The notes under the pieces are model-generated. The model had not been told where the DNA came from. It saw only the letters and a program-made list of their open reading frames with translations, and did not search any database. 64,000 nt of DNA from an uncultured Candidatus Saccharibacteria bacterium. Lineage in GTDB: Bacteria; Patescibacteriota; Doudnabacteria; UBA920. The DNA is taken from assembly GCA_964521955.1 (NCBI GenBank), contig CAZFTX010000002.1, forward strand, positions 28,785 to 92,784. Reading direction: 5' to 3'. Positions 4,963 to 55,561 of this stretch are shown here, in pieces. Each line of letters opens with the position of its first letter. Positions within the stretch are counted from its first letter, which is position 1. Position numbers and translations under genes: made by a program.

Positions 4963-6345
4963 TTATATTTCCTTCACCCTGCCAAAACCCACACTATCCC
5001 TAAAAACTTTACCTGACTTTAAAACCGGAGCGCGTAAGATTGTAAACTCCCCGTATTTGTTGTTAATTTGGTCTAAAGCTTCACAAAGCTTTTTATTCTC
5101 CTCTCTGTGTCCAAACAAACTTAACTGCTGGCTGTAAGGCCGCAAATTAGCCACTGTAACACCAATAAGCTTAAACCCCCACTCCCCTTTAGGTTGCACT
5201 TGTTTAAAAATTGTTTTTGCTTGCAAAAAAATTTCCCGGCCTTCGGAAATAAAGTCTCCCAACTTTAAACTATTACCAAAACTTCGGTAGTTTTTGTCAT
5301 AACTAAAAAAATGCAAAACGTTGCCCTCTAAACCCTTTCTTCTCAACCTCCTCCCGACCATTTCACAAAGTTTATAAAGCACGGGAATAAAAAATTCCGG
5401 CTTTCTAAACTCTTTAGGCAAAGTGTACATGTGACCAATGGATTTTAACTCTTGATCCTGTTTTACATGTGCCTTCCAGCTAGAGCTTAACTGGCCTAAA
5501 TTGTACAAATGGTGTCCTTGCACGGGTCCAAATCGCCTGACCAAATGGCTCTTGGGATAATTTTTTAAATCCTCTAAGGTTTTAATACCTAAAGCGTATA
5601 AGTTTTTCTCCTGCCTATGTCCTATACCGGGTACGTCTGTAAGCTTAAGCTGTTTATATAAATCATTAGTAGTAAAACTTAAAGCTCCCAAATTTTCCAT
5701 TTTGATTTTTTCATTTTCATTTTCAGTAACGACTACTATTCCGTCCGGTTTTTTTAAGTCTGAACCAATTTTCGCCAAGGTTTTGTTTGAAGCTATGCCC
5801 ACAGAACAAGTTAAAACCTCCCCCATTTCTTTCTTCATTTGCAACTTAATGACTTTGGTAATTTTTACTGCTTCAGTAAATGGATCTACATAATTTTCTG
5901 ATTTATTGATTAACTGATTTAATGATTTTCGCTCATCAATTGAAGAATTGTTATTTAAAATTTGATATTTGTTTGATATTTGGTACTTGTTATTTGGCAT
6001 CCTGATATTACAAACTTTTGTAATATCCAAAAACACTTCGTCTATACTGTAAACCTCTACCAAAGCAGTAAATTCCGAAACCACCTTTACCATAGCTCTA
6101 TGGTAAAACCTATACCTTTCGGCCTGGGTATGGACTAAAACAATCTTCGGGCAAAGTTTTTTTGCTTCCCAAACCGGAGTTCCGGTTTTAATACCCAACT
6201 TTTTTGCTTCACGACTGGGGGAAATAATAATTCCACCCAAGTGTTCGCAGACCCCAACCGGTTTACCTCTAAGTTCGGGGTTGTCTGCTTGGGCAACCGA
6301 AGCAAAAAAACTATTCATATCTAAATGCAAAATGATTTGTTGCAT
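4963..6345 (-). CDS. dinB: DNA polymerase IV (Y-family translesion polymerase)
   Basis: 460 aa. N-terminal MQQIILHLDMNSFFASV and overall Y-family pattern. Contains a low-complexity NKYQISNKYQILNNN insert encoded by the direct DNA repeat tttgatatttg. Confidence 0.85.
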   Translation of the reverse strand: MQQIILHLDMNSFFASVAQADNPELRGKPVGVCEHLGGIIISPSREAKKLGIKTGTPVWEAKKLCPKIVLVHTQAERYRFYHRAMVKVVSEFTALVEVYSIDEVFLDITKVCNIRMPNNKYQISNKYQILNNNSSIDERKSLNQLINKSENYVDPFTEAVKITKVIKLQMKKEMGEVLTCSVGIASNKTLAKIGSDLKKPDGIVVVTENENEKIKMENLGALSFTTNDLYKQLKLTDVPGIGHRQEKNLYALGIKTLEDLKNYPKSHLVRRFGPVQGHHLYNLGQLSSSWKAHVKQDQELKSIGHMYTLPKEFRKPEFFIPVLYKLCEMVGRRLRRKGLEGNVLHFFSYDKNYRSFGNSLKLGDFISEGREIFLQAKTIFKQVQPKGEWGFKLIGVTVANLRPYSQQLSLFGHREENKKLCEALDQINNKYGEFTILRAPVLKSGKVFRDSVGFGRVKEI

Positions 6346-6645
6346 ACAAATAAATTATTCTAATTAACCTAATTTCCCTGCCTTGCCGGCAGGCAGGTAA
6401 TTACTCTAAAACTGCAACCCCTTAGAACAATTAGGTCAATTAGAGCACTTAGGTTAATTCTTGAATTATTAGGTGTTCATTCGTTCACCCTTTGTAGTTA
6501 TAATAAAACAGCCTTTTAAAGCTGTCAATTTAGATTCCTGAAGCTCGGGCTTTGCCCGGCTGAAGGAAAACAATATGGAAAAGGGAGGCCGAGCGTTAGC
6601 GAGGATTTGGAAGGGAAAAACCTATAGGTTTTTCACTCCAAGGAT

Positions 6646-7653: not shown

Positions 7654-8661
7654 TTACTTGCTACTTAGAATGCTTTTTTTATAACTATCCAAGTTTTCCA
7701 CAGCCACGCCTGTGCCTTTCGCTACGCAAAGTAAGGGGTCTTCAGCAACAAAACACTGCACACCTAAAGTCTGAGAAATGTAGTGGTCTAAATTTCTTAA
7801 AAGCGCACCACCACCTGTCATAACCATACCTTTGTCAATAATATCACTTGCAAGTTCAGGAGGAGTCTCCTGCAAAACGGTTTTAATAGCTTTAATCATT
7901 TCAGAAAGTTCGTCAGAAATAGCCGTGACAACTTCATTGGTTGTAACAGTTACGGTTTTAGGTAACCCGGAAACCATATCTCTCCCCTTTACTTCCATTG
8001 CTTCTTCTTCACTTAAAGCAAGCGCACTTCCAATTGTAATTTTTATTTCTTCCGCTGTTCTGTCGCCTATGGCTAAACCGTGTTTTTTTCTTACGAACTC
8101 AACTATAGCTTGGTCTAACCTGTTACCTGCAACCCGAACTGAAGTGGAATTTACAATTCCCCCTAAAGATAAAACCGCTACGTCAGTCGTTCCGCCACCA
8201 ATATCAATAACTAAGTTCCCAGAAGCTGAAGCAATGGGAATTCCCGCACCAATTGCAGCAGCTACAGTTTCTTTAATTACAAAGGCACTCTTTGCTCCGG
8301 CAGAAGTTGCCGCGTCAATAACAGCACGCCTTTCTGTAGAAGTAATTCCACCCGGCACACTAATCATGACCTCGGGTCTAAAAAACCTTACATTACCCAA
8401 AGCTTTATTAATAAAATATTTAAGCATGGCTTCAGTAACCCTAAAGTCAGCTATTACTCCATCTTTCATTGGTCTTAAGGCCACTATGGTTTCAGGAGTA
8501 CGCCCCAACATTTCTTTTGCTTCTTGACCGACGGCTAAAACACGGTTGTCTTCTAAAGACACCGCCACCACAGTCGGCTCGTTTATAATAATTCCACGTT
8601 TCGGTACATAAACTAAAGTGTTAGCTGTACCCAAATCTATCCCAATTTTAGTTTCAAACAT
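7654..8661 (-). CDS. mreB: Rod shape-determining protein MreB (actin-like ATPase)
   Basis: MFETKIGIDLGTANTLVYV and an MreB-wide match. 335 aa. Confidence 0.9.
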   Translation of the reverse strand: MFETKIGIDLGTANTLVYVPKRGIIINEPTVVAVSLEDNRVLAVGQEAKEMLGRTPETIVALRPMKDGVIADFRVTEAMLKYFINKALGNVRFFRPEVMISVPGGITSTERRAVIDAATSAGAKSAFVIKETVAAAIGAGIPIASASGNLVIDIGGGTTDVAVLSLGGIVNSTSVRVAGNRLDQAIVEFVRKKHGLAIGDRTAEEIKITIGSALALSEEEAMEVKGRDMVSGLPKTVTVTTNEVVTAISDELSEMIKAIKTVLQETPPELASDIIDKGMVMTGGGALLRNLDHYISQTLGVQCFVAEDPLLCVAKGTGVAVENLDSYKKSILSSK

Positions 8662-8836
8662 ACCCGAAAATTATTCTAAGTACTCTAATTTATAATTACT
8701 CTAAAAACTGCTTCAAGATTTGTATTCTTTTTAGAATAATTAGGTCAATTAGATCAATTTTTATCAATCAAGGGTTATTATAACAGCAAAGAGTGCATTG
8801 TAACAAGCTTATAAATAGGCTAAAATACACTCATAT

Positions 8837-16513: not shown

Positions 16514-16900
16514 CTAATGACACAAATCAAACTTATCATTTATTACTCTTTTGGGTTTTATAAAAGTAGATCTAAAATTAACTATCATCCCTAGTTTTAC
16601 GTCCAAACCATATAAATAGCGTAACATTTGATAATAATCTTCTTTTGTAATAAATTTTTTTGCTTTAATATCAACTGGCAATCTATCTTCTATAACAAAG
16701 TCAACCCTATTACCTGCTGGAGATTCATTATTTAAACTTTTTATTTCACACTCTCTTTTATAACTAATATTATTAGATTCAAACTGCTTTTCTAATTCAT
16801 CACTATATTGCCTTTCGCTACAAAATCTACCTAATTTTTTATGAACTTTAAAACAACACCCCGCGATCTTGAAACTTAAATCTTTTTCAATGATCTCCAT
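16514..16900 (-). CDS. GxxExxY-family protein (PD-(D/E)XK-like), copy 1
   Basis: 128 aa. Pattern FKVHKKLG..ERQY, IVELKA-like DIKAKK and a C-terminal MLRYLYGLDVKLGMIVNF match the GxxExxY family. Paralogous to 20631..21035. Confidence 0.65.
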   Translation of the reverse strand: MEIIEKDLSFKIAGCCFKVHKKLGRFCSERQYSDELEKQFESNNISYKRECEIKSLNNESPAGNRVDFVIEDRLPVDIKAKKFITKEDYYQMLRYLYGLDVKLGMIVNFRSTFIKPKRVINDKFDLCH

Positions 16901-19465: not shown

Positions 19466-19601
19466 AGCTTCTTCAATATTATTCTCTCCAACCTGTCCGC
19501 CATAGTTTTATGCGAAGACGGATTTATGGGAAGATGTCCCACAAGGGGCAGAGAGATTAATATAAATTAGAATAATTAGGTCAATTAGAAATTAGAGTAA
19601 C

Positions 19602-20630: not shown

Positions 20631-21035
20631 CTATTTTTTCCAATTATCAATTTTCACAACTCTTCTTGGTTTTATGTATTTATCTCTAAAGTTAACAATA
20701 ATAGCAATCTTTAATCCAGTTTCTTGTAAGTATCTTTGAACCTGGTAATAATCTTCTTTAGTTATTATTCTCTTAGCTTTTAATTCTAAAGCGACCTTAT
20801 TCTCTACTACAAAATCTAATATATTTACCAAATCTCCGATACGCTTTTCTCTTTCAAATTTAATATTTTTTTCTTTAAACATTCTTTCTACAACATCACC
20901 ATATTGCTTTTCTTTAGCATATTGACTTAATTCATTATGGGCTGAAAATAGTACCCCATTAATTTGATAAGTAAGCTCTTCAAAAAACAACCCTTCTTTT
21001 TTAAAATCTGTATTATCTGTATCATTAGTATTCAT
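20631..21035 (-). CDS. GxxExxY-family protein, copy 2, inserted between the two transketolase subunit genes
   Basis: 134 aa. ALELKAK, ITKEDYYQVQRYLQETGLKIAIIVNF. Paralogous to 16514..16900. Confidence 0.65.
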   Translation of the reverse strand: MNTNDTDNTDFKKEGLFFEELTYQINGVLFSAHNELSQYAKEKQYGDVVERMFKEKNIKFEREKRIGDLVNILDFVVENKVALELKAKRIITKEDYYQVQRYLQETGLKIAIIVNFRDKYIKPRRVVKIDNWKK

Positions 21036-24806: not shown

Positions 24807-24950
24807 TTGGTTTTTTTAGAATGAAGATCCGCCCGAAGCCCTTTGGGCGAAGGAGGACCGAAATTCTGACATAAATGAATACTGAATCTAGAATGACGAA
24901 TTATGAATGGGACTGCAGATTTTAAATTCATAATTCATGACTCTTACTTC

Positions 24951-38861: not shown

Positions 38862-38865
38862 AGAA

Positions 38866-38975
38866 TAATTTTATGATTAAATAAGATTTAATGATTGACC
38901 AAGATTTATACTGCACTAATTTTTTGTCATTCTTGATCATTCTTGATCATTCTTGATCATTTCACTCATTATACC
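38866..38975 (-). repeat. Family-2 intergenic repeat (secY-rplO spacer), variant with 3x tandem TCATTCTTGA
   Basis: Shares GATTAAATAAGATTTAATGATTGACCA...TTGTCATTCTTG with the four other copies. Confidence 0.6.
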
Positions 38976-38980
38976 ACGAC

Positions 38981-39418: not shown

Positions 39419-39420
39419 AT

Positions 39421-39522
39421 CTTTACTAATTACGAATCGATACTAATTTACGAATACTAAATAAATAAAATTAACCTTAGAACCAAGAATTAGTATATTT
39501 GTACTAATTCGTAATTCGTAAA
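39421..39522 (-). repeat. Family-1 intergenic MITE-like repeat (rplO-rpsE spacer)
   Basis: TACTAATTACGAAT ... ATTCGTAATTCGTA terminal inverted repeats. 8 copies in the window. Confidence 0.7.
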
Positions 39523-39524
39523 TA

Positions 39525-40022
39525 CTATTTTCTCATCTTCGCTAACTGCTCTTTGCTTTTCATCTTCTTAAAAGCTGCGAAAGTGGCTTTTACGTTGTTA
39601 ACTTTGTTATTTGAGCCAAGCATTTTGCAAACTATATTTTTAATTCCGGCAAGTTCCATAACACTACGAACAGCACCACCGGCAATAACACCTGTACCAG
39701 GCCTAGCTGGTTTTAACATTAAAGAAGAAGACTTGTACTTAATTTTAAGTTCATGAGGAATAGTTTCAGCAACTAAAGGCAAGGTTACCATGTTCTTTTT
39801 AGCAGCATTTACAGCTTTATTTACACTTTCAGAAACATCAGCGCCTTTTTTCAGACCCATACCAACTTTACCTTTATGGTCACCAATAACAACTAACGCG
39901 CGAAAACGCATGCGTTTACCACCGGCAACTACACGCGTAACTCTTTTGACTTCAACCACTTTTTGGTCAAACTCACTGCGTTCTCTGTTATCACCTTTTT
40001 GTTGTCTGCGTCTTTTTTCCAT
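39525..40022 (-). CDS. rpsE: 30S ribosomal protein S5
   Basis: Translation plus position. Confidence 0.9.
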   Translation of the reverse strand: MEKRRRQQKGDNRERSEFDQKVVEVKRVTRVVAGGKRMRFRALVVIGDHKGKVGMGLKKGADVSESVNKAVNAAKKNMVTLPLVAETIPHELKIKYKSSSLMLKPARPGTGVIAGGAVRSVMELAGIKNIVCKMLGSNNKVNNVKATFAAFKKMKSKEQLAKMRK

Positions 40023-40045
40023 AAATATATCTAAACTACTATTAA

Positions 40046-40402
40046 TTAAAACTTAAGGCCACCTTCTCTAGCTGCTTCGGCTAAAGCCTTTACTCTACCG
40101 TGATAAGCATAACCACCTCGATCAAAAACAATTTGTTTAATGCCTTTAGCTGTTGCTTTTTCTGCAACCAATTTACCAACAGCAGAAGCAATTTCGGTTT
40201 TTTTACCTTTAATCTTAACTTCTTTACTGCTGGCAGAAACTAAAGTTTTTCCTGAACTGTCATCTATAGCTTGTGCATAAATATGAGCACTTGCCTTAAA
40301 GACATTCAACCTTGGAATAGTGGCTGTGCCAAAAACACGGCTTCTGACTCGATTGTGCCTTATTTCTCTCTTTATTCGCTTATGCTTTGCTGCTGATTTC
40401 AT
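40046..40402 (-). CDS. rplR: 50S ribosomal protein L18
   Basis: Translation plus position. Confidence 0.9.
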
Positions 40403-40430
40403 AACTTTAAAATTAAACTAATGAGAAAGA

Positions 40431-40985
40431 CTACTTACCTCCACCGACTACTTTAACCACTTTACCGGCTTTTCTAATAATAGTTTCGTCTAAATACTTA
40501 ATTCCTTTGCCTTTGTAAGGTTCTGGTTTTTTCAGTTCTCTAACTTCTGCAGCAAACTGACCAACTCTTTGCTTGTCAGCACCGGCAATAGTAATAACGT
40601 TTTTTTCAACAGTAACGGTTAAGTCTTTTGGAATTGGTACAATTACAGGATGAGAAAACCCTAAGCGCATTTCTAAATTAGTCGTTTTCAATTCAACTTT
40701 AAAACCTACGCCGTTAATTTCCAACTTCTTTTCAAAGCCTTTAGTTACTCCGTCAGCCATATTTTGAACAAGCGAGCGGAATAAACCCCACAATGAACGT
40801 TCTTTCTTATTTTCCTTTAAAGCAACATCAACTAAAATTTCTTTTTCAGAAACAGTAACTTGAACTTTTGGATGAATTTCCAAAACCAAAGTACCCTTAG
40901 GACCGGTGACAGTCAAAGTATTGTCTTTCATTTCTGCCTTAACTCCTGCAGAAAGCACTATTGGTTTTTTTCCTATTCTAGACAT
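40431..40985 (-). CDS. rplF: 50S ribosomal protein L6
   Basis: Translation plus position. Confidence 0.9.
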   Translation of the reverse strand: MSRIGKKPIVLSAGVKAEMKDNTLTVTGPKGTLVLEIHPKVQVTVSEKEILVDVALKENKKERSLWGLFRSLVQNMADGVTKGFEKKLEINGVGFKVELKTTNLEMRLGFSHPVIVPIPKDLTVTVEKNVITIAGADKQRVGQFAAEVRELKKPEPYKGKGIKYLDETIIRKAGKVVKVVGGGK

Positions 40986-41092
40986 AATATAATTTCTCGA
41001 TTAAATAAAATTTATGAATTGACCATAATTTATTCTTGCGGTAATTTTTGTCACTCTTGGCAATTTTGATCATTTTTGGTCATTTACTTTAC
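40986..41092 (-). repeat. Family-2 intergenic repeat (rplF-rpsH spacer)
   Basis: About 90% identical to 41482-41588. Confidence 0.7.
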
Positions 41093-41481
41093 CAGATCTG
41101 ACAAATAACTTCCCCGCCTAAATGGGCTTTACGAGCTTGCTTGTCGCTCATGAGGCCTTTGGAAGTAGAAACCACTGTAACTCCGAAACCACTGTTAGTT
41201 CTTGGCAGCTTTTCTACGGACAAGTAAATTCTCTGCCCTGGTTTGCTAACTCTCTTTACACCAGAAATAACCGGATCGCCTTCTGTAGAATATTTTAAAC
41301 CAATCTGTAATTGCTTTATTTTACCCGTTATTTCTTGCACGCTTGAAACAAAACCTTCCTTTAAAAGCATGTTAGCCAGGTTTGCTTTAAACTTTGAGTA
41401 TGGCAAAACCAGGTCGCCTTTTTTAGCGGCTGTTGCGTTGCGAATTCTGGTTAACATGTCAGATATTGGATCGGTATACAT
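41089..41481 (-). CDS. rpsH: 30S ribosomal protein S8
   Basis: Translation plus position. Confidence 0.9.
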   Translation of the reverse strand: MYTDPISDMLTRIRNATAAKKGDLVLPYSKFKANLANMLLKEGFVSSVQEITGKIKQLQIGLKYSTEGDPVISGVKRVSKPGQRIYLSVEKLPRTNSGFGVTVVSTSKGLMSDKQARKAHLGGEVICQIW

Positions 41482-41588
41482 AATATAATTTCTTGATTAA
41501 ATAAAATTTATGAATTGACCATGATTTATTCTTGCAGTAATCTTTGTCATTCTTGGCAATTTTGATCATTTTTGGTCATTTACTTTAC
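41482..41588 (-). repeat. Family-2 intergenic repeat (rpsH-rpsZ spacer)
   Basis: Near-identical to 40986-41092. Confidence 0.7.
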
Positions 41589-41779
41589 CAGCTTGCTTTG
41601 ACTACTCCCGGAATTTCACCTTTACTAGCCAATTCTCTAAAGCAAATACGACACATATTGAAGTCTCTCATATAGCCGGCTTTTCTGCCGCATTTCCAAC
41701 AGCGTCTAATTATTCTGGTAGAATACTTAGCCTTAACCATACTTCTTTTTGCTCGTGCAATATGTGCTTTTGTAGCCAT
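41585..41779 (-). CDS. rpsZ: 30S ribosomal protein S14 type Z (zinc-binding)
   Basis: 64 aa with [20 protein letters not shown]ys4. Confidence 0.85.
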
Positions 41780-41798
41780 TTTCTAAAATTAATCTTAA

Positions 41799-42338
41799 TT
41801 ACTGCTTAAAGGGGAAACCCATCTCTTTTAATAATTCTCGGGAAACGTCGTCATTACCTGAATTGATTACAATTGTAACTTCCATTCCAAATATATGTTC
41901 TAAAGCTGCAGAAGAAATTTCCGGAAAAACCAAATGTTCTTTTAAACCCAAGTTATAGTTACCTCTGCCATCAAAACCTTTTGAGGAAACACCTTGAAAG
42001 TCTCTAACTCTTGGCAGGGAAATGTTAATTAACTTGTCCAGGAAACTATACATTCTAAAGCCTCTTAAGGTGGCAGTCAAGCCAACGATTTGGTTTTCTC
42101 TAACCTTAAATCCTGCAATGGACTTTCTAGCTTTAGTTCTCACCGGAGCTTGGCCCAAAATTTGCTTTAAGTCTTCAACCATTTTATCAACGGTTTTTGA
42201 ATCCTTAATAAGCTTACCAATACCTACGTTAATAACAATTTTCTGCACCTTAGGCACTTCCATAACATTCTTAAAACTGAACTTCTTTTTCAAGCTTGGT
42301 ACAATGTCTTTATTAAATTTTTCCTGTAATCTTTCCAT
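41799..42338 (-). CDS. rplE: 50S ribosomal protein L5
   Basis: Translation plus position. Confidence 0.9.
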   Translation of the reverse strand: MERLQEKFNKDIVPSLKKKFSFKNVMEVPKVQKIVINVGIGKLIKDSKTVDKMVEDLKQILGQAPVRTKARKSIAGFKVRENQIVGLTATLRGFRMYSFLDKLINISLPRVRDFQGVSSKGFDGRGNYNLGLKEHLVFPEISSAALEHIFGMEVTIVINSGNDDVSRELLKEMGFPFKQ

Positions 42339-42344
42339 AATAGT

Positions 42345-42472
42345 TTATTCCTTATTGATTCTCTCTCCAGGAGATGGAGAGAGTTAGAGAGAGGTCGGAT
42401 TTTTCAAACCTCTCTGTCCCGATTTCATCGGGACATCTCCCCATGCATTGGGGAGAACAGTATTGTACTTCG
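42345..42472 (-). ncRNA. rplX-rplE spacer containing four consecutive GC-rich hairpins. Candidate structured leader or processing element.
   Basis: CTCTCTCC..GGAGAGAG, AGAGAGAGG..CCTCTCTGT, GTCCCGAT-ttca-TCGGGAC, TCTCCCCA-tgcat-TGGGGAGA, read directly. Confidence 0.35.
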
Positions 42473-42474
42473 TT

Positions 42475-42798
42475 CTATACGGGCTTTCCACTGTCTTTAC
42501 CTATTCTTTGCTTTACACCACTTTCTGTAAACTTATATCCTATACGACTGGGATTACCTGAGTTACTGTCTATAAGTATCAGCTTGGAAACGGACATACC
42601 GGCTGGAAACTGAATCTTCTTGCCCGGTTCGCCGGCTTTCTTACTTCTCTCAAAGCGAGTATGAACGTTAATGTTCTCAACAACCACTTTACCAAGTTTT
42701 GGTAAAACGGTAAGAACTTTACCAGTTTTGCCCTTGTCTTTACCAGAAAGGACTTTAACTGTGTCGCCTTTTTTAATTTTCATCTTTGCAATCTTCAT
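42475..42798 (-). CDS. rplX: 50S ribosomal protein L24
   Basis: KOW motif. Position. Confidence 0.9.
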
Positions 42799-42800
42799 AC

Positions 42801-42900
42801 CTTTACAAATTACGAATTGATACTAATATACGAATCTTTAATAAATAAGTTTTTCTTTGGAATCATGAATTAGTATATTTGTACTAATTCGTAATTCGTA
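42801..42900 (-). repeat. Family-1 repeat (rplX-rplN spacer)
   Basis: As for the family. Confidence 0.7.
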
Positions 42901-42904
42901 CTTT

Positions 42905-43297
42905 CTATATGACTTCCGGGGCAAGGGAAATTATTTTCTTAAAACCATCTTTATAATTACCCAAAGCTTTTTCACGAATCTCTCTCGGAATTGGCCCGAA
43001 AATACGGGTTCCCTTAGGTTCGCCGGTTTCTTTGTTTACCAACACCCCGGCATTCTCATCAAAGCGAATATAGGAACCGTCTTTTCTGCGAATTTCTTTG
43101 CGTAAACGTACAATCACAGCATATACTTTATCACCCTTTTTTACAGAAGAATTTGGAGAAACTTGTCTTACAGAACCCGCAACAATGTCACCCACAGTAG
43201 CAAAACGATTACTGTTTTTACCGTTCACGCTAAACACATTAACGACTTTCGCGCCGGTGTTATCTGCTATTTTAATGTAAGATCTTACTTGTAACAT
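42905..43297 (-). CDS. rplN: 50S ribosomal protein L14
   Basis: Translation plus position. Confidence 0.9.
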
Positions 43298-43298
43298 A

Positions 43299-43402
43299 CT
43301 TTTACCAATTACGAATAGATACTAATATACGAATATTTAATAAATAGGGTTTTTCTTTGAAATCAGGAATTAGTATATTCGTACTAATTCGTAATTCGTA
43401 AA
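43299..43402 (-). repeat. Family-1 repeat (rplN-rpsQ spacer)
   Basis: As for the family. Confidence 0.7.
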
Positions 43403-43403
43403 C

Positions 43404-43649
43404 TTATACTTTTCTTACTACTTTAAACCTCTTATCTTTACTCTTTGGAGCAATGGATTCTATTTCTACCTTTTCACCAGTCTTGTATTCGTTTTTCTCG
43501 TCATGAGCTTTAAATCTTTTGGAAACTGTATAAGACTTGTGATATTTGGCATGCCTCTTACGCATATCTACCTTGACCACTACGGTTTTATCCATTTTGT
43601 CAGAAACAACCAAGCCAATCATTAATTGTTTTTTAGAAGTAATTGTCAT
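43404..43649 (-). CDS. rpsQ: 30S ribosomal protein S17
   Basis: Translation plus position. Confidence 0.9.
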   Translation of the reverse strand: MTITSKKQLMIGLVVSDKMDKTVVVKVDMRKRHAKYHKSYTVSKRFKAHDEKNEYKTGEKVEIESIAPKSKDKRFKVVRKV

Positions 43650-43658
43650 ATATAAAAA

Positions 43659-43862
43659 TTATTTACTCTCGCTTGAAACTTTAATATTACCTAAAAAAGT
43701 CATTACTCTAGCAATATCTTTTTTAACCTGCCCTAATTTACTTACGTTCTTTAACTGGTTCAGTTTTAACTTCAAAGTCAAATCATGCGCTTCCGACTTT
43801 AAGTCTTGGAGCATTTTCTTTACTTCGGCTTCAGATTTGGTTGTAAGTTCTTTGTACTTCAT
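43659..43862 (-). CDS. rpmC: 50S ribosomal protein L29
   Basis: Translation plus position. Confidence 0.85.
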   Translation of the reverse strand: MKYKELTTKSEAEVKKMLQDLKSEAHDLTLKLKLNQLKNVSKLGQVKKDIARVMTFLGNIKVSSESK

Positions 43863-43966
43863 CTTTTACTAATTACGAATAGATACTAATATACGAATCT
43901 TTAATAAATAGGGTTTTCTTTGGAATCAGGAATTAGTATATTCGTACTAATTCGTAATTCGTAAAA
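43863..43966 (-). repeat. Family-1 repeat (rpmC-rplP spacer)
   Basis: As for the family. Confidence 0.7.
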
Positions 43967-43969
43967 TTT

Positions 43970-44386
43970 CTACCCGCGGTGTTCTTTTTCTAAAAATTTA
44001 GATTTAACCGGCAGTTTGTAACTGGCAAGCCTCATGGCTTCCTGAGCTTGTTCTTTAGTAACTCCGTCCATTTCAAACAAAATTTTCCCTTTTTTTACAA
44101 CTGCTACAAAATGGTCAACCGCACCTTTACCTCCACCCATAGGACTTTCGTTTCCATGCACAGTTACAGGCTTGTCAGCAAAAACGCGAATCCAAATCTT
44201 ACCGCCTCTTTGTACGTATCTGGTCATGGCGCGCCTGGCGGACTCAATTTGTCTTGCAGTCACCCAAGAACCTTCAACAGCTTTAAGGGCAAAAGTACCG
44301 AAAGCAATCTGCTCACCGGCAGTTGCTTGGCCTTTAGTGTCACCACGGTGGTGTTTGCGGTGTTTTAATTTTTTAGGGATAAACAT
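43970..44386 (-). CDS. rplP: 50S ribosomal protein L16
   Basis: Translation plus position. Confidence 0.9.
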
Positions 44387-44430
44387 ATCTTTACGAATTA
44401 CGAATCAATACTAATTTACGAATAATTAAA
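44387..44430 (-). repeat. Family-1 repeat, left half only (rplP-rpsC spacer)
   Basis: CTTTACGAATTACGAATCAATACTAATTTACGAAT then diverges. Confidence 0.55.
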
Positions 44431-44433
44431 TAG

Positions 44434-45111
44434 TTATGCTTTTTCTACTACACTTTTCTTAGCTTCAACATTTTTTTCCTGGAAAACATCACCTTTGTAA
44501 ATCCATACCTTTACACCAACAGTTCCGTAAGTAGTGTAAGCTGTACTTCGAGCAAAATCAATCTCAGCTCTTAAAGTATGTAAAGGAATTTTTCCTGAAG
44601 AAAGGTGTTCAGTTCTGGCAATTTCTGCGCCATTGAGCCTACCACCAATTGCAACTTTTGCTCCCTTAGCGCCGGCATTCATAACTTGTTCCAAAGCTTG
44701 CTTCATGAGTCTTCTGAAAGCTACGCGTTTTTCAATCTGTTCTGTAATAAAGTCGGCAATAACTTGAGCTTGAAGGTTAACTTCCCGAATCTCCTCTATA
44801 TTAATCTTCAATTCTTTCTTAATATTCAACTTAGCCTTAACCTTCTTCTTTAAATCTTCAATTCCTGCGCCACCTTTACCAATAATCAAACCCGGTTTAG
44901 TAGTTTTAATAACCACAGTAATTGTTCCATCGTTAAAGCGTTCAATATCAACTCTAACTAACCCGGCCTTTTTAAGATGTTTTTCCAAATAAGTACGAAT
45001 TTTAACGTCTTCCTGAAGCTGTTCTCTGTAAGCGCCACGAGAAAACCACTTGGATTTCCAAGTATCGGTAATTTTAAGTCTTAATGAAGTTGGGTTAATC
45101 TTATGTCCCAT
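44434..45111 (-). CDS. rpsC: 30S ribosomal protein S3
   Basis: KH domain and S3 C-terminal domain. Confidence 0.9.
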   Translation of the reverse strand: MGHKINPTSLRLKITDTWKSKWFSRGAYREQLQEDVKIRTYLEKHLKKAGLVRVDIERFNDGTITVVIKTTKPGLIIGKGGAGIEDLKKKVKAKLNIKKELKINIEEIREVNLQAQVIADFITEQIEKRVAFRRLMKQALEQVMNAGAKGAKVAIGGRLNGAEIARTEHLSSGKIPLHTLRAEIDFARSTAYTTYGTVGVKVWIYKGDVFQEKNVEAKKSVVEKA

Positions 45112-45125
45112 AAATCTTTACTAAT

Positions 45126-45230
45126 TACGAATCAATACTAATTTACGAATTGGTTAATAAATAAGGTTTTTTTTAGAATCAGGAATTAGTATATTCGTAC
45201 TAATTCGTAATTCGTAAAAAGTTATTCTCC
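45126..45230 (-). repeat. Family-1 repeat (rpsC-rplV spacer)
   Basis: As for the family. Confidence 0.7.
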
Positions 45231-45797
45231 CGACTTTCTGTTAAAGAGTCTGCGCTTTTGAGTAACTGTGTTCATCTTTCTTTGTTCGTCAGTCTTAATT
45301 ACTCTCTGCTTCTTTACTTCCTTAACTTTCTTTTCACCTTCAACTGCTTGTTCCGGTATCTTACCTTCCACTACTTCGTCTTTCTTTGCTTTTAAGAAGT
45401 CTAAATTCCTGCCGGCCTTTTTACCTTTCGCTACTTTTTCTTCCAAAACAATGTTTATATGAGACATCTTTCTGCGGATAACGAAAGCACTGCCACGAGC
45501 TCTTGGAAAATATCTCTTCATTACTTTACCCATGTCGGCGGTAATGCTTTTAATAACTAAACTTGCCGGGTCTAAGGCAAAGTTATGTTGAGCGTTGGCA
45601 ACTGCAGACTTAATAAGTTTTAAAACCATTGGGGCAGCTTTTTTGGTCGTATGCTGAAGTTCTACCATTGCATCCACTACGTTCATACCTTTGACCAAGT
45701 TTGTAACCAATCGCACCTTTCGTGGCGCAATATGAAGATCCTTGGCAAATGCCGTGACAAGTTTTGGGGTATTAAGTTTTTTAATTGCTGCGGTCAT
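45222..45797 (-). CDS. rplV: 50S ribosomal protein L22 (with extended basic C-terminus)
   Basis: L22 core plus about 70 aa Lys/Glu-rich tail. Confidence 0.85.
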   Translation of the reverse strand: MTAAIKKLNTPKLVTAFAKDLHIAPRKVRLVTNLVKGMNVVDAMVELQHTTKKAAPMVLKLIKSAVANAQHNFALDPASLVIKSITADMGKVMKRYFPRARGSAFVIRRKMSHINIVLEEKVAKGKKAGRNLDFLKAKKDEVVEGKIPEQAVEGEKKVKEVKKQRVIKTDEQRKMNTVTQKRRLFNRKSGE

Positions 45798-45906
45798 GTA
45801 CGTAATTGATCAAGATTAAATAAGATTTATTGATTGACAATGATTTAAATTGCAGTAATTTTTGTCATTCTTGGCAATTTTGATCATTTTTGGTCATTTA
45901 CTTTAC
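45798..45906 (-). repeat. Family-2 repeat (rplV-rpsS spacer)
   Basis: As for the family. Confidence 0.7.
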
Positions 45907-46235
45907 TTCTTGGCTGGTGTCTTTGCTTCATCCATCTTAGCTTTTTCTGCTGCGGCGGCTGCTAACTCTTGGTCTTTAGCCATTTTACCACCATGACGGT
46001 TAAACTTACGCGTTAAAGCAAATTCACCCAATTTATGTCCAACCATATTTTCAGTCACAAAAACTGACACGTGAGTTCGGCCATTATGCACTAAAAAAGT
46101 AAATCCGACAAACTCAGGTGCAATAGCCGAATCCCTAGACCAAGTTTTAATTTGGTCCTTGCCGGCTTTGCCTGCCAAAACTTTTTTTACAAGTTTTGGG
46201 TCAATATATGGTCCTTTTTTTAAACTTCTAGACAT
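45903..46235 (-). CDS. rpsS: 30S ribosomal protein S19
   Basis: Translation plus position. Confidence 0.9.
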
Positions 46236-46237
46236 AT

Positions 46238-46322
46238 TTTTACTAATTACGAATTTTAATAAATAGGTTGTTTCTTTAGAATCAAGAATTAGTATATTCG
46301 TACCAATTCGTAATTCGTAAAA
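46238..46322 (-). repeat. Family-1 repeat, internally deleted copy (rpsS-rplB spacer)
   Basis: Both terminal inverted repeats retained; middle shortened. Confidence 0.6.
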
Positions 46323-46324
46323 AA

Positions 46325-47161
46325 CTACTTGCTTCTGCGCTTAATAATCATGTGGTTACTGTATTTCTTCTTAAGTCTGGTCTTAACACCCATTGCATGT
46401 TTACCCCACGGAGTCTTTGGATACTTCATACCAATTGGGTTATGACCTTCACCACCACCATGAGGGTGATCTACCGGGTTCATGGCTTTACCACGAACAG
46501 TTGGACGTATGCCCATGTGTCTGGACCTACCGGCTTTTCCAATTCTGACATTCATCCAGTCTGCGTTAGCTAACTGACCCATAGTTGCAGCACAAGTGTC
46601 TTTAATCTTGCGAATTTCACCTGAAGGCATTTTCAAAAGTGCATAACCTGCTTCCATGTTCTGTAAAATAGCATAAGCACCGGCACTGCGAGCAATTCTT
46701 CCGCCTTGGCCCGGAGCTAACTCAATGTCGTGAATAAAACTTCCAACCGGAATATTTTTTAAAGCTAAACGGTTACCGGGTAAAATTTCAGCTGTGTCAC
46801 TAAACATAACTCTGTCACCAACTTTTAAACCTTGTGGGGTTAAAATATAGCGCTTTACACCGTCCGCATATGCAAGTAAGGAAATAAAAGCGGTACGTCC
46901 CGGGTCGTATTCAACGGTCTTAACTAAAGCTGGAACATTCTTTTTATCTGTTCTGGAAAAATCTAAAATTCTAAGTTTTTTTCTTGCACCGCCGCCATGA
47001 TGTCTAACACTAATTTTTCCGCTGTTGTTTCGGCCACCAGCTCTGCCTTTAGCAACTACCATCCCTTTTGGGGTTTTGGACTTTTTATGCAATACCGAAT
47101 AGTCGGTCACACTGTGAATGCGCCTGCCTGCGGATGTTGGTTTGTAAAGTTTAACGGCCAT
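46325..47161 (-). CDS. rplB: 50S ribosomal protein L2
   Basis: Translation plus position. Confidence 0.9.
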
Positions 47162-47243
47162 AATATTTTAGTTGAAAGTTATCAGGTTATAAAGTTTTTA
47201 AAGTAATTACTTGATGAACTTGAAGGACTTTATAAACTTGTTA

Positions 47244-47600
47244 CTAAACTGCTTCAGCTGTGGCAATTCTGTCACCTTTTCTTAAAGTTACAATTGCTTT
47301 CTTAAAGTCAGAAGTTCTACCGGCCATGTTTTTAAAATTCCTTGTCTTGCCTTGCATCTTAACAATATTGACTCTGACAACTCTAACTTTATAGGAAGTT
47401 TCAATAGCTTTTTTAACTTCAATCTTGTTGGCTTTATTGGCAACCACGAAAACATACTTGTCTTGACTGTTGAGCTTTGTGGCTTTTTCGGAAATTCTTG
47501 GCTGCACAATCACTGACTGTAGCGCAACTGAAGACATTAAGACTTCTTGGGAAGCCTCTTGTTTCTCTGGGGTTTCAGTTTTTTTAGTAAATAAAGCCAT
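47244..47600 (-). CDS. rplW: 50S ribosomal protein L23 (possibly starting at the internal Met, ~47537)
   Basis: Translation plus position. Confidence 0.8.
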   Translation of the reverse strand: MALFTKKTETPEKQEASQEVLMSSVALQSVIVQPRISEKATKLNSQDKYVFVVANKANKIEVKKAIETSYKVRVVRVNIVKMQGKTRNFKNMAGRTSDFKKAIVTLRKGDRIATAEAV

Positions 47601-47692
47601 AAACTAATTTAAAATCCTAATTATTCGAATTCGTATCCCAATGCTCCGAAAATTTTATTTGGATCATTAGGATAGAATTAGGGTTATTCGGA

Positions 47693-48352
47693 TTATGTTG
47701 TCTTCTTAATATCTTTTAAATATGTTTTTTCAATTACTGCAAGACTGTCTTTAAAAACTAACAAGCTATCAGACTTTAAAACATCCACCACATTCATACT
47801 GTTAGCTAACATATAGTTAATTCCCGGAACGTTTCTTAAAGCACGGGAAATGTTTTTATCGCTCTTAGGGACAACTAGAGTAACTTTTGTACCAATTTCC
47901 TTAATCGCTTTTTTAAAACCGGCTAAAACTTTAACAAATTCTTTAGTCTTCACTGGTTCTAAAACTATTCGGTCAACAACCACAAAATTTCCGTGTTTAA
48001 CCTTGTCTGAAACGCACATAAACAAAGCCTGTTTTTTAGCTTTCTTATTTATCTTCAATTCCCAGTTACGGCTTGCTCTTGGACCAAAAGTCACACCACC
48101 ATGTCTCCAAATAGGACTGCGGATACTACCAACGCGGGCTCTACCTGTTCCTTTTTGCTTCCAGGGTTTTTTACCACCACCGGCAACTTCGCCTCGAGTT
48201 TTGGTGTTTGAAGTCCCTTTGCGAGCACCTCTTTGCTGAATCCTTACCGCTTCTGCAACCAAATGTTCTTTTGGAGCAACGCCAAAAATCTTGGAATTGA
48301 GTTCCACTTCACCAACATTTTCAGCTTTTTGGTTATAGACTGGTAATTTCAT
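47693..48352 (-). CDS. rplD: 50S ribosomal protein L4
   Basis: Translation plus position. Confidence 0.9.
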   Translation of the reverse strand: MKLPVYNQKAENVGEVELNSKIFGVAPKEHLVAEAVRIQQRGARKGTSNTKTRGEVAGGGKKPWKQKGTGRARVGSIRSPIWRHGGVTFGPRASRNWELKINKKAKKQALFMCVSDKVKHGNFVVVDRIVLEPVKTKEFVKVLAGFKKAIKEIGTKVTLVVPKSDKNISRALRNVPGINYMLANSMNVVDVLKSDSLLVFKDSLAVIEKTYLKDIKKTT

Positions 48353-48353
48353 A

Positions 48354-48432
48354 CTTTACTAATATACGAATCTTTAATAAATAAGTTTTTTCTTTGGAAT
48401 CAGGAATTAGTATATTCGTACTAATTCGTAAA
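48354..48432 (-). repeat. Family-1 repeat, 5'-truncated copy (rplD-rplC spacer)
   Basis: Right half and right terminal inverted repeat retained. Confidence 0.6.
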
Positions 48433-49124: not shown

Positions 49125-49147
49125 ATAAATAAGTTAGGGCTTAAGCA

Positions 49148-49247
49148 TTAATCCAAGTGCGAGGCATTTTCCTGAGGATTTTACGAGCCGTAGCTGAGCT
49201 ACGGTGAGGAAAACCTTGAGGGAAATAACGAAGCAATTGGATTAAAC
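49148..49247 (+). repeat. Family-3 repeat inside the unusually long (342-nt) rpsJ-rplC spacer. Inverted partner of 30515-30616.
   Basis: Hand alignment at about 87% identity. Spacer also has hairpins GACCGGC-tcc-GCCGGTC and GCGGGC-tttta-CCCGC. Confidence 0.6.
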
Positions 49248-49466
49248 CTGGCTTTAGGACCGGCTCCGCCGGTCAGAAAGACAGGGGTGCGTAAGTCCTA
49301 AAATAAAAGCGGGCTTTTACCCGCAATAATAAATAGAGAAAATTCTCTTTTACTTATGTAGGTAAATCGTTCTCTAGTATGCTGAGCTTAAAAGCTTTGA
49401 CTTACTAGAACTAATCTACAATTATTAAATATCTGTGTAATCTGTTTTTTATCAGTGTATCAGTGG

Positions 49467-49985: not shown

Positions 49986-50630
49986 TTAAGAGGGTTTTTT
50001 GTTTTTATATTTCATCGTTATTGAGTCTTTATGTCGGTGATAAATATATGATGGAAAGTTTACTTTCAATATTTTCGCTTTACTTTTGATCACTGTTTGG
50101 AAAAATACAGAATCGTTACCATATGCTTCGTTTGGAAAATATCCAACTTTTTTAAATATTTCTTGCTTTACTACAAAAGTACCCCCGAGAGCCACTTCAT
50201 TAACATGTATCAACTTTCCTGGACGAAACTTATCTGGCACAAATTCTTCTCCAATAGTCTTTACACCCCCATACAAAAAATCAATCTCTGGGTTTTTCTT
50301 TAAAATCTCCTTTCTAAAAGCCAAATGATCAGATGAATACTCATCGTCATCGTCTAAAAAAGTAACGTACTTACCTTTTGCTTTTTCTATGCCTAAATTC
50401 TTAGAGATTGCCGAACCAACATGATCATGATTAAAATATATGATATTTTTATTTTCTTTTAAAATCTGAGTAATTTTTTGCGATAGCTCAAGATTTCCTG
50501 AATCATCAGAAATAATTAACTCCCAATTGTTCTCTGTTTGAGCCAATACCGAATCAATTGCCCTAACAAGCTTTTTGGGTCTATTATATGCTGAAATAAT
50601 TACTGAAAAGAATGGTTGTGTTTTTTTCAT
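49986..50630 (-). CDS. Family-2 glycosyltransferase (short, 214 aa)
   Basis: FSVIISAYNR...DDSGN...DDDD motifs of GT2. Confidence 0.65.
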   Translation of the reverse strand: MKKTQPFFSVIISAYNRPKKLVRAIDSVLAQTENNWELIISDDSGNLELSQKITQILKENKNIIYFNHDHVGSAISKNLGIEKAKGKYVTFLDDDDEYSSDHLAFRKEILKKNPEIDFLYGGVKTIGEEFVPDKFRPGKLIHVNEVALGGTFVVKQEIFKKVGYFPNEAYGNDSVFFQTVIKSKAKILKVNFPSYIYHRHKDSITMKYKNKKPS

Positions 50631-51902: not shown

Positions 51903-52160
51903 TTTTTTACCTTTCGTTGTCGTCCGCCAACTGGCGGATCACGACATATCGCCCGAGACCCCCTCACTACTACATCTATCGACTAAACGATGCAGTGCCG
52001 AGGGTATCTCTTTCTTTCCTTTCGGAATCCAGGGCTAAAATTAATTGTTTGCTAAAACTTATTTTAATGATATTTATGCATTCTGTCAATTATGCTTGTT
52101 AGCCTATCAGTGGATCAGAAATACTGATTAGCTGATTTGCTGACTAGCTGATTAACTAAA

Positions 52161-52550
52161 CTACAAATCGTCTATATCTACCTTCGGACCTTCAAAGTCA
52201 AAGCTAGGGTCAATAACTTCTTCGCGCAAATCCACACGAATATGATTGGTTGATTGACTGACTTGTTGATTTACTGATTTATTGATTGGCTGATGAGCTG
52301 ATTGGCTAATTTGCTGATCGGCTAATTTGCTGATCGGCTGATCGGCGGTTGTGTCCCTGAGCTGTGCTTCTATTATTTTTCGGTTGATATTTTCAACTTC
52401 ATTTACCTGTTTTTGCAATTTACCTAAAAGCAATTTTTGATATTCTTCTAAAGGTAAAATAACTAACTTAGCCTCCCCCGTTTCGTCCAAGACAAAAAAC
52501 TTTCCCCCGTCAGCTTTTGCTAAGTTGATTAAGTCCTGAATTGAAGCCAT
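52161..52550 (-). CDS. Hypothetical protein with a C-terminal low-complexity Q/S-rich 8-aa repeat encoded by a 24-nt repeat (8-nt sub-period TGATYGGC)
   Basis: N-terminal 70 aa look globular. DNA array at 52241-52360 read directly. Confidence 0.35.
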   Translation of the reverse strand: MASIQDLINLAKADGGKFFVLDETGEAKLVILPLEEYQKLLLGKLQKQVNEVENINRKIIEAQLRDTTADQPISKLADQQISQSAHQPINKSVNQQVSQSTNHIRVDLREEVIDPSFDFEGPKVDIDDL

Positions 52551-54761: not shown

Positions 54762-54928
54762 ATATAAGTTAGCTTATAGCTGATAGCTTGTAGCTTATTA
54801 GCTTTAAAAAATTAATAATACTTTTATTTCTTTTCCGAGACTTCGGATTTATTCCGAGCCGAGGATATTTTTTTGGAAAAGATGCTAGAAGGAAAACCTT
54901 TTTTCTAAAAAGGTGGTCCTTTTACACC

Positions 54929-55456: not shown

Positions 55457-55561
55457 AAACTAATTGATCAAGATTAAATAAGATTTAATGATTGACCATG
55501 ATTTTAATTGCATTAATTTCTGGCAATTTTGTTCATTTTTGGTCAATTTTGTTCATTTGAA
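55457..55561 (-). repeat. Family-2 repeat (rpsG-rpsL spacer)
   Basis: As for the family. Confidence 0.7.

Follow-up and report, generated by a model that had tools for sequence, protein, structure and literature searches.

The S10/spc ribosomal-protein operon of an uncultured Candidatus Saccharibacteria bacterium (GenBank assembly GCA_964521955.1, contig CAZFTX010000002.1) carries in its intergenic spacers eight co-oriented copies of a palindromic repeat of about 100 nt, here called family 1. With moderate confidence we regard family 1 as a member of a class of palindromic repeats found throughout the lineage, that is, as copied selfish DNA of the type of the repetitive extragenic palindromic (REP) sequences and their hairpin-forming doublets (REPINs) or of the miniature inverted-repeat transposable elements (MITEs), which is tolerated through its hairpin. 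The whole stretch of DNA analysed, from here the window, comprises 64,000 nt, or less than 10% of the genome, with the S10/spc genes at 39.4–48.4 kb on the minus strand. It was compared with 358 kb of related loci, among them the S10/spc operons of five relatives at approximately 77–82% L2 identity (L030, L033, L036, L040 and L041, of which L040 is GCA_964474825.1 and L041 belongs to the Doudnabacteria). Genes were called from open reading frames (ORFs) and synteny, and the identities of the flanking genes, among them L2, S19, L14, L16 and S3, were confirmed by Pfam. Homologues of L2 assign the organism to the Patescibacteria, or candidate phyla radiation (CPR).

A first-pass annotation, made by reading the letters, had described eight copies of about 100 nt with terminal inverted repeats (TIRs) and an asymmetric core in ribosomal-protein spacers. 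BLAST and probe counts show that all eight exist (c1 to c8, Table 1), seven as full or partial copies and one as a half copy, with 85–96% identity to c4. A 32-nt arm probe matched the window six times against 0 matches expected from shuffled sequence, and a 14-nt TIR probe 14 times against 0.8 expected, which excludes chance. The TIRs and the core are as described, Pfam agrees with the naming of the downstream genes as rplO, rplX, rplN, rpmC, rplP, rpsC, rpsS and rplD, and the coordinates were right within 1–3 nt with the exception of c6, which had been placed about 10 nt too far to the right (45126–45230). All copies lie within one 9-kb operon segment, in the S10/spc spacers that make up 20 of the approximately 74 junctions of the window (p ~8e-6). 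The words TACGAAT/ATTCGTA are nearly confined to the family-1 spacers and almost absent elsewhere in the 64 kb. The reported co-orientation likewise held when forward and reverse alignments were compared (8/8; two-sided p = 0.008 if the copies are independent); because nearly all genes of the window are on one strand, the directions of replication and transcription are inseparable here. Independent assemblies from other samples contain c7 (L001, identical), c5 and c6 (L039, c5 identical, with the first bases of c4 at the contig end) and c2 (L038, one difference). Hence, family 1 is not an assembly artefact. A search by S19 for further strain variants returned only L001.

In the mRNA sense, the 5′ arm of a full copy reads TTTAC-GAAT-TACGAAT-TAG-TACGAAT-A-TACTAAT and is followed by a loop of about 30 nt and the 3′ arm ATTCGTA-T-ATTAGTA-TCN-ATTCGTA-ATTAGTA-AAG. 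The arms thus consist of 3–4 tandem 7-nt words, TACGAAT/TACTAAT against ATTCGTA/ATTAGTA, which are degenerate (TACGAAT, TAGTACGAAT, ATACTAAT) and paired with a complementary array. The TIRs TACTAATTACGAAT and ATTCGTAATTCGTA agree at 13 of 14 positions, and the elements measure 82–110 nt without coding capacity. The element ends in GTAAA(A/G), with the ATG 0–5 nt beyond. In the predicted fold, the two arms form a stem of about 35 bp with a minimum free energy (MFE) of −20 to −28 kcal/mol and z scores of about −4 to −5.5 for full copies. The foot of this hairpin lies 1–4 nt past the upstream stop codon and 1–5 nt before the ATG, so that folding of the mRNA brings the stop and the start codon to within only 3–9 unpaired bases of each other, approximately the length of a native spacer. 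As judged from the words themselves, the partner of TACGAAT tends to be ATTAGTA, and that of TACTAAT to be ATTCGTA, which would leave many heptads with a central mismatch. The 5′ arm in addition holds a perfect 9-bp stem with a 6-nt loop, GAATTAGTA-CGAATA-TACTAATTC, extending to a local hairpin of about 15 bp; this 9-bp hairpin forms where the 3′ arm is missing and is the only fold formed by c8. The internal deletions of c7 and c8 sit between direct word repeats, fitting the expectation from slippage.

Spacer elements are replaced or lost quickly. In strain L038, L14 and L24 share 99% identity with the genes of the window, and L5 is identical over its first 185 nt. Its S17-L14 junction ends in the 3′ end of a second repeat family (family 2), whereas the window has c3, and its L24-L5 spacer holds, between identical flanks, an 85-nt AT-rich element instead of the 136-nt GC-rich one of the window. 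The later part of L5 is 5.6% diverged, making the gene visibly mosaic; the strains therefore recombine homologously, and spacer alleles may be shuffled in this way. A sister species (L002/L003; rplB 91% identical at the nucleotide and 100% at the amino acid level) carries family 2 in three junctions that hold three other elements in the window; after rplB, for instance, L002 carries a family-2 element in the place of c7. Upstream of tuf, a word hairpin of the window (51903–52160) is absent from L042 (471–659), while the adjoining leader is kept. In L030 and L041, junctions are empty: half of those in L030 measure 1–25 nt and the spacers of L041 mostly 3–35 nt, yet the gene order is the same as in the window. 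The first-pass annotation had named relatives that lack the spacers with an intact operon as evidence against its proposal; L041 and half of the L030 junctions are of this kind. In L033, L036 and L040, nearly all junctions measure 60–135 nt.

Short Logan contigs may be chimeric at repeats. In L002 (1051–1611), L2 is followed by the family-2 element and then by rplF (L6) in place of rpsS, an order that most likely arose as an assembly join through the family-2 repeat. As L6 directly after L2 is probably such a join, only the L2-to-family-2 junction of this contig was used; the case is also a warning for the binning and assembly of these genomes.

Family 1 is not alone in its architecture. Four related species share one plan in almost every long spacer: 3–4 tandem words of 7–8 nt, a loop and the complementary words. 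The words vary (TACGAAT, TACTAAA, TACGGAT, ACAAAT, CAGTG, ATAAGT, CGCTGA, AGTAG and others). Autocorrelation within the arms of 59 long ribosomal-protein spacers, taken from five genomes, shows peaks at lag 7 (z = 17.8) and at lag 14 (z = 9.6). A different multi-copy family dominates in each genome: a GTAG-word family with 7–8 copies in L040, TACTAAA in L036 and ACAAAT in L033. Over five families, 22 copies are oriented as the reference and 3 are inverted. BLAST and global alignment place inverted same-family copies inside one operon, clearly so at L3-L4 of L033 and more weakly at L22-S3 and L16-L29 of L036. Both orientations are therefore viable, though the bias is real, and a universal co-orientation of the class is ruled out. 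The earlier argument that uniform orientation speaks against neutral MITE insertion is not borne out for the class, and the family-1 core in other genomes likewise runs with the flanking genes in 10 cases and against them in 5.

This core, the 24-mer ACGAATTRGTACRAATATACTAAT, occurs exactly in 10 of 185,579 species genomes, and a 22-mer within the family-1 core in 15 metagenome contigs. The carriers include Parcubacteria, Wolfebacteria and Saccharibacteria, as well as contigs that by gene content (ccmC/E/F, cysDN) truly belong to Bacteroidota; labels of metagenome-assembled genomes (MAGs) can err, as for L013, which is labelled Gammaproteobacteria and looks like a member of the CPR. Identical arms of 24–40 nt are common to CPR and Bacteroidota. 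Loci elsewhere usually hold one element each, with a loop of 5 to 60 nt and the 3′ arm sometimes absent; arms without a partner were found in L011, L013 and L017. The core is mostly situated between adjacent co-oriented genes, namely rplP-rpmC, mraZ-rsmH, dnaK-dnaJ, groES-groEL, cysD-cysN, trmD-rplS and ccm genes, and in the Saccharibacteria MAG L008 a short relative of family 1 occupies rplP-rpmC, the same junction as c4. A near-identical core in CPR and Bacteroidota points either to genes passing between the two groups or to a mobilising or recognition factor that both have in common. Phage as the vector was dismissed: the one 19-mer match in IMG/VR lacks flanking words and is probably due to chance.

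Table 1. Repeat and hairpin elements in the gene junctions of the window (positions are those of the 64,000-nt stretch)
Element	Position	Strand	Junction	Remarks
c1	39422..39522	(-)	rpsE-rplO	85% to c4; MFE -20.2 kcal/mol, z -2.4; foot 2 nt past stop, 3 nt before ATG
c2	42802..42900	(-)	rplN-rplX	94% to c4; MFE -28.3 kcal/mol, z -5.5
c3	43299..43402	(-)	rpsQ-rplN	96% to c4; MFE -25.7 kcal/mol, z -4.6
c4	43863..43965	(-)	rplP-rpmC	reference copy; MFE -25.5 kcal/mol, z -5.1
c5	44389..44430 (approx. start)	(-)	rpsC-rplP	half copy, 3′ arm only; no fold
c6	45117..45218	(-)	rplV-rpsC	91% to c4; MFE -24.6 kcal/mol, z -4.6
c7	46238..46321	(-)	rplB-rpsS	92.5% to c4; 17-nt deletion between two ATTCGTA words
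c8	48357..48431	(-)	rplC-rplD	96% to c4 over 75 nt; outer word gone on both arms
Family-2 related element	38862..38980	(-)	rplO-secY	
Family-2 copy	40986..41088	(-)	rpsH-rplF	95% to the 41482 copy; weak fold, z -0.3
Family-2 copy	41482..41584	(-)	rpsN-rpsH	
Family-2 copy	45798..45902	(-)	rpsS-rplV	91% identical
Family-2 copy	55457..55561	(-)	rpsL-rpsG	
Unrelated GC-rich four-hairpin spacer	42339..42474	(-)	rplX-rplE (L24-L5)	MFE -55.6 kcal/mol, z -6.6; neighbours AT-rich
Single-copy spacer element	47162..47243	(-)	rplW-rplB	related species has family 2 here
Single-copy hairpin element	47601..47692	(-)	rplD-rplW	MFE -22.1 kcal/mol, z -3.5; L003: family-2 3′ end upstream of rplW

We favour the selfish-DNA reading because these are multi-copy families whose likeness includes the non-repetitive loop, with presence/absence and replacement at orthologous junctions, and because the elements are dispensable in relatives, lack conservation of sequence or pairing and share a core across phyla. 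Accordingly worded as a mechanism, the elements would have been copied into very short stop-to-start junctions of the operon, by a single-stranded DNA/Y1-type or another process, and would behave as REP/REPIN- or MITE-type selfish DNA rather than as conserved regulatory RNA. In the mRNA, the insert of about 100 nt would fold as one hairpin whose foot keeps stop and ATG at approximately the native distance. Termination-reinitiation, i.e. translational coupling, could then continue across the hairpin foot, and the insert would probably be tolerated. The co-orientation in the window genome would reflect the copying, through a strand-specific or local process, and not an obligatory RNA function. 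That each copy directly abuts an ATG, as the first-pass annotation had noted, calls for no mechanism of its own: native spacers in relatives have just 1–25 nt (L030, L041), and any insert in such a spacer must abut both stop and ATG.

Several points weigh against this reading. The flanks of the eight copies share no direct repeat that could be a target-site duplication, and none is seen when filled and empty tuf regions are compared. A Pfam search with the 10 unannotated ORFs of the window yielded only two PDDEXK_3 proteins and thus no transposase, which is weak evidence because only 64 kb of the genome are visible, and a HUH/Y motif scan, Y1 included, of the 358 kb of related loci found no Y1/RAYT protein, again a weak negative with less than 10% of the genome covered. 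One architecture carried by so many word families in genomes of about 1 Mb fits poorly with ordinary MITE families that are unrelated to one another. Whole spacers are replaced without a footprint, which could be allele shuffling by homologous recombination, as the L5 mosaic of L038 suggests, and an orientation bias as strong as 22 to 3 could also mean selection.

The foremost alternative, to which we assign a clearly smaller but still appreciable probability, is that the elements are selected cis-acting RNAs: processing sites for RNase III or another enzyme, stabilisers of the mRNA, or structures that hide the start codon until the upstream ribosome terminates and so would enforce 1:1 translational coupling in a genome poor in Shine-Dalgarno (SD) sites. 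It would be favoured by a hairpin that takes up the entire spacer and has the stop and start codons at its foot, by the location of the core elsewhere mostly between co-oriented adjacent genes, by the GTAAAG end, which in several genomes often stands 0–4 nt before an ATG and does so in either orientation, by the orientation bias and by a slightly better sense than antisense fold in 6 of 7 family-1 copies. The genome is indeed SD-poor, which also speaks for this explanation and supports the first-pass annotation on this point, with SD-like 4-mers before 11 of the 75 window genes, A/T-rich sequence in the upstream 20 nt and T at position −1 in 48 of 75. Against a selected RNA, compensatory changes were found in 0 of 23 predicted pairs of family 1, and Rfam gave no match to it at the gathering score or at E ≤ 1. 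Of 49 long spacers, 24 folded better as the sense strand and 25 as the antisense strand (Wilcoxon p = 0.36), so the RNA-level function suggested by the first-pass annotation found no support in these tests. Furthermore, there is hardly any fold in family 2 at the corresponding junctions, strains and species carry different elements or none while keeping the operon order, inverted copies occur within the same operon in relatives, and c5 and c8 are retained although unable to form the full hairpin. An RNA role can coexist with a mobile origin, by exaptation.

A real conserved RNA is detectable in this material when present. The structure of the S10-L3 spacer is kept across the clade (L030, L033, L036, L040 and L041), with compensatory changes in 11 of 26 predicted pairs. 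In the window it lies within 49125–49466 (−), especially at 49290–49440, and it ends in a terminator-like GCGGG...CCCGC with a U-run (49309–49324). The structure has no Rfam match and is a candidate for a new ribosomal-protein leader or attenuator between rpsJ and rplC.

A more far-reaching proposal, which we rate as rather unlikely, sees a so far unrecognised class of elements defined by structure, the heptad-word hairpin with periodic central mismatches, which a strand-specific, structure-recognising enzyme would copy into stop/start junctions. The elements would be exchanged between CPR and Bacteroidota and serve as interchangeable 'operon punctuation', the ribosome that terminates being able to cross the foot of the hairpin and reach the following start codon. 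The SD-poor character of the window genome is suggestive of this, as is the fact that Bacteroidota start translation largely without Shine-Dalgarno pairing.

It is unlikely, and slightly more so, that the elements were made in place, with slippage creating tandem heptamers in AT-rich spacers, fold-back template switching adding the inverted array, and gene conversion or strain recombination spreading copies. The strong period-7 signal agrees with such an origin, as do the many single-copy word types per genome (in L030, eight long spacers of 56–91 nt each carry a different word), the word-unit deletions in c7 and c8, the arms without partner (besides those in L011, L013 and L017, one upstream of fusA at 54762–54810) and the mosaic recombination tract in L038. 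Heptamers are moreover the commonest long simple repeats in bacteria according to the summary of Mrazek 2007 given in PMC4679880. Local origin sits poorly with eight copies that are 85–96% identical over about 100 nt, the non-repetitive loop included, at junctions without flanking homology, with identical 24–40-nt arms in CPR and Bacteroidota, and with the exchange of family 1 for family 2 between 99%-identical flanks. Like the cis-RNA explanation, it may combine with mobility. A DNA-level array of protein-binding sites or promoters, with TACGAAT words as operators, nucleoid-protein sites or promoter elements controlling each gene separately, would account for the repeated words at regular spacing and for a cross-phylum core, as expected of a protein-recognised site, and is nevertheless very improbable, for promoter-like sites occur at chance level (27 found, 27.9 expected, which also disposes of the −10-like element considered in the first-pass annotation), the words vary by spacer and genome and hardly occur in the remaining 55 kb of the window, and elements are missing in relatives.

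Family 1 resembles several known systems in part. With its TIRs, small size, lack of coding capacity and presence/absence polymorphism it was rightly called a MITE-like, non-coding palindromic family. The hairpin MITEs, i.e. Correia/NEMIS of Neisseria, ERIC/IRU of enterobacteria and RUP/BOX of pneumococci, are elements of about 100–150 bp with TIRs and without an ORF in transcribed intergenic regions, whose RNAs can be substrates of RNase III/E and affect neighbouring genes in an orientation-dependent manner. Correia duplicates a TA target, ERIC occurs in both orientations, and each of these families has one conserved sequence per taxon. Size, TIRs, the absence of an ORF, the transcribed intergenic site and the long RNA hairpin are shared with family 1; here there is no duplication, and dozens of word variants stand on one architecture. 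No autonomous insertion sequence that shares the family-1 ends was seen in the window or the related loci. To our knowledge, no hairpin MITE fills nearly every S10/spc junction.

REP sequences, bacterial interspersed mosaic elements (BIMEs) and REPINs are palindromic repeats tagged with GTAG and mobilised by Y1 transposases of the REP-associated tyrosine transposase (RAYT) type (Di Nocera 2013, PMC3733652; Quentin 2018, PMC6006769). Common to them and family 1 are the non-coding, imperfect palindromes whose inverted pairs form a larger hairpin (here the arm-arm stem), a short palindromic unit of 20–40 bp (here the local hairpin of the 5′ arm), the position between co-directional genes just past stop codons with transcription within operons, strain polymorphism and the lack of a target-site duplication. 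The window copies end TTTAC...GTAAA(G) and have no GTAG (or CGTC) tag, while relatives of family 1 in L005, L015 and L022 as well as the L036 family end CTAC...GTAG; in Bacteroidota, some RAYT subclasses are known to go with atypical REPs. Family 1 differs in its arms of tandem 7-nt words with regular central mismatches, in the lack of a visible RAYT gene, in the concentration of its copies in one operon of the 64-kb window instead of dispersal, and in a core that is near-identical across phyla, whereas REPs are usually species-specific.

An origin from IS200/IS605-derived palindrome-associated transposable elements (PATEs), which had been raised in the first-pass annotation, is possible. PATEs are likewise non-autonomous and hairpin-bearing, do not duplicate the target and are expected to show strand bias, and TTAC, the IS608 target, is found at the family-1 ends, but as part of both arms. 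They have two distinct subterminal hairpins and no TIRs, whereas family 1 is a single long palindrome with TIRs, and relatives (L033, L036) have inverted copies within the same operon. No TnpA or TnpB was found in the sequence examined. The likeness to integron attC sites is a structural analogy only: a structured, imperfect palindrome of diverse sequence and fixed architecture follows each gene, mostly in one orientation. The core sites RYYYAAC/GTTRRRY are lacking, the ends being TTTAC/GTAAA, the window has no integrase-like ORF, and the genes between the elements are universal ribosomal-protein genes in fixed order and not cassettes.

TAACTGA heptamer repeats occur just upstream of start codons in Beggiatoaceae, Cyanobacteria and Bacteroidetes, also inside ribosomal-protein operons where SD sites are rare in the spacers, and their patchy spread across phyla suggests horizontal transfer by an unknown mechanism (MacGregor 2015, PMC4679880). 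Family 1 has in common with them the 7-nt period, the distance of a few nt from start codons and the patchy distribution that includes Bacteroidetes; they differ in that a single heptamer is repeated directly and perfectly and has no inverted counterpart, whereas the family-1 words are degenerate, 3–4 per arm and paired in a hairpin. The same likenesses and differences apply to the cyanobacterial STRR heptamers, which are further tandem heptamer repeats of this kind. None of the closest of these systems combines a heptad-word palindrome, near-saturated S10/spc junctions, fast allele replacement and a cross-phylum core, and no description of CPR/Patescibacteria repeats of this kind, or of the sequence itself, was found in the searchable literature.

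Few known operons are as compact and conserved as the S10/spc cluster, and here nearly every junction is filled with palindromes of about 100 nt. Such operons may tolerate far more intercistronic sequence than has been assumed, provided that the insert folds away. With them, translational coupling and mRNA processing could be studied in a natural setting in SD-poor CPR bacteria, and the spacers could serve as strain-level markers.

Family 2, with a length of about 103 nt and the words ATGAYCAAAA, is restricted to ribosomal-protein junctions in the window, and all its copies are co-oriented. It folds weakly (z −0.3 to −1.5), and the idea that every spacer is a hairpin is thus false. Word hairpins also occur outside the ribosomal operons of the window, e.g. 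at 6346–6645, 8662–8836, 24807–24950 and 51903–52160; family 1 itself was not found at these sites. A CTAATTG/AATTAG word family lies in direct orientation in non-ribosomal intergenic regions at 6343–6471, 8659–8780 and 19466–19500. The partnerless arm upstream of fusA (−) consists of tandem 8-nt words (AAGCTAAT AAGCTAC AAGCTATC...) that adjoin the ATG. AATCAGY words at 52245–52303 lie within the ORF 52161–52550; the low-complexity stretch that they encode there is variable, with a different form in L042.

The tuf leader comprises about 175 nt, is GC-rich and structured, contains a promoter-like site TTGACA-17-TAAAAT and differs by a single base between the window and L042. The gap between tuf and rpsJ varies across the clade; in the window it holds an ORF of 214 aa (49986–50630, −), the N-terminus of which appears glycosyltransferase-like by eye, and relatives have other small ORFs there. 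L30 is missing between S5 and L15 in the window. The two small PF13366 ORFs (PDDEXK_3, PD-(D/E)XK; 16514–16900 and 20631–21035, −) stand singly among housekeeping genes (gap/pgk and split transketolase genes), and L013 holds a protein that seems similar in sequence. ORFs of PF05635 (23S rRNA intervening sequence protein/Avd-like) adjoin fusA and gatC in L033; like the PDDEXK_3 ORFs, these are possibly selfish genes.

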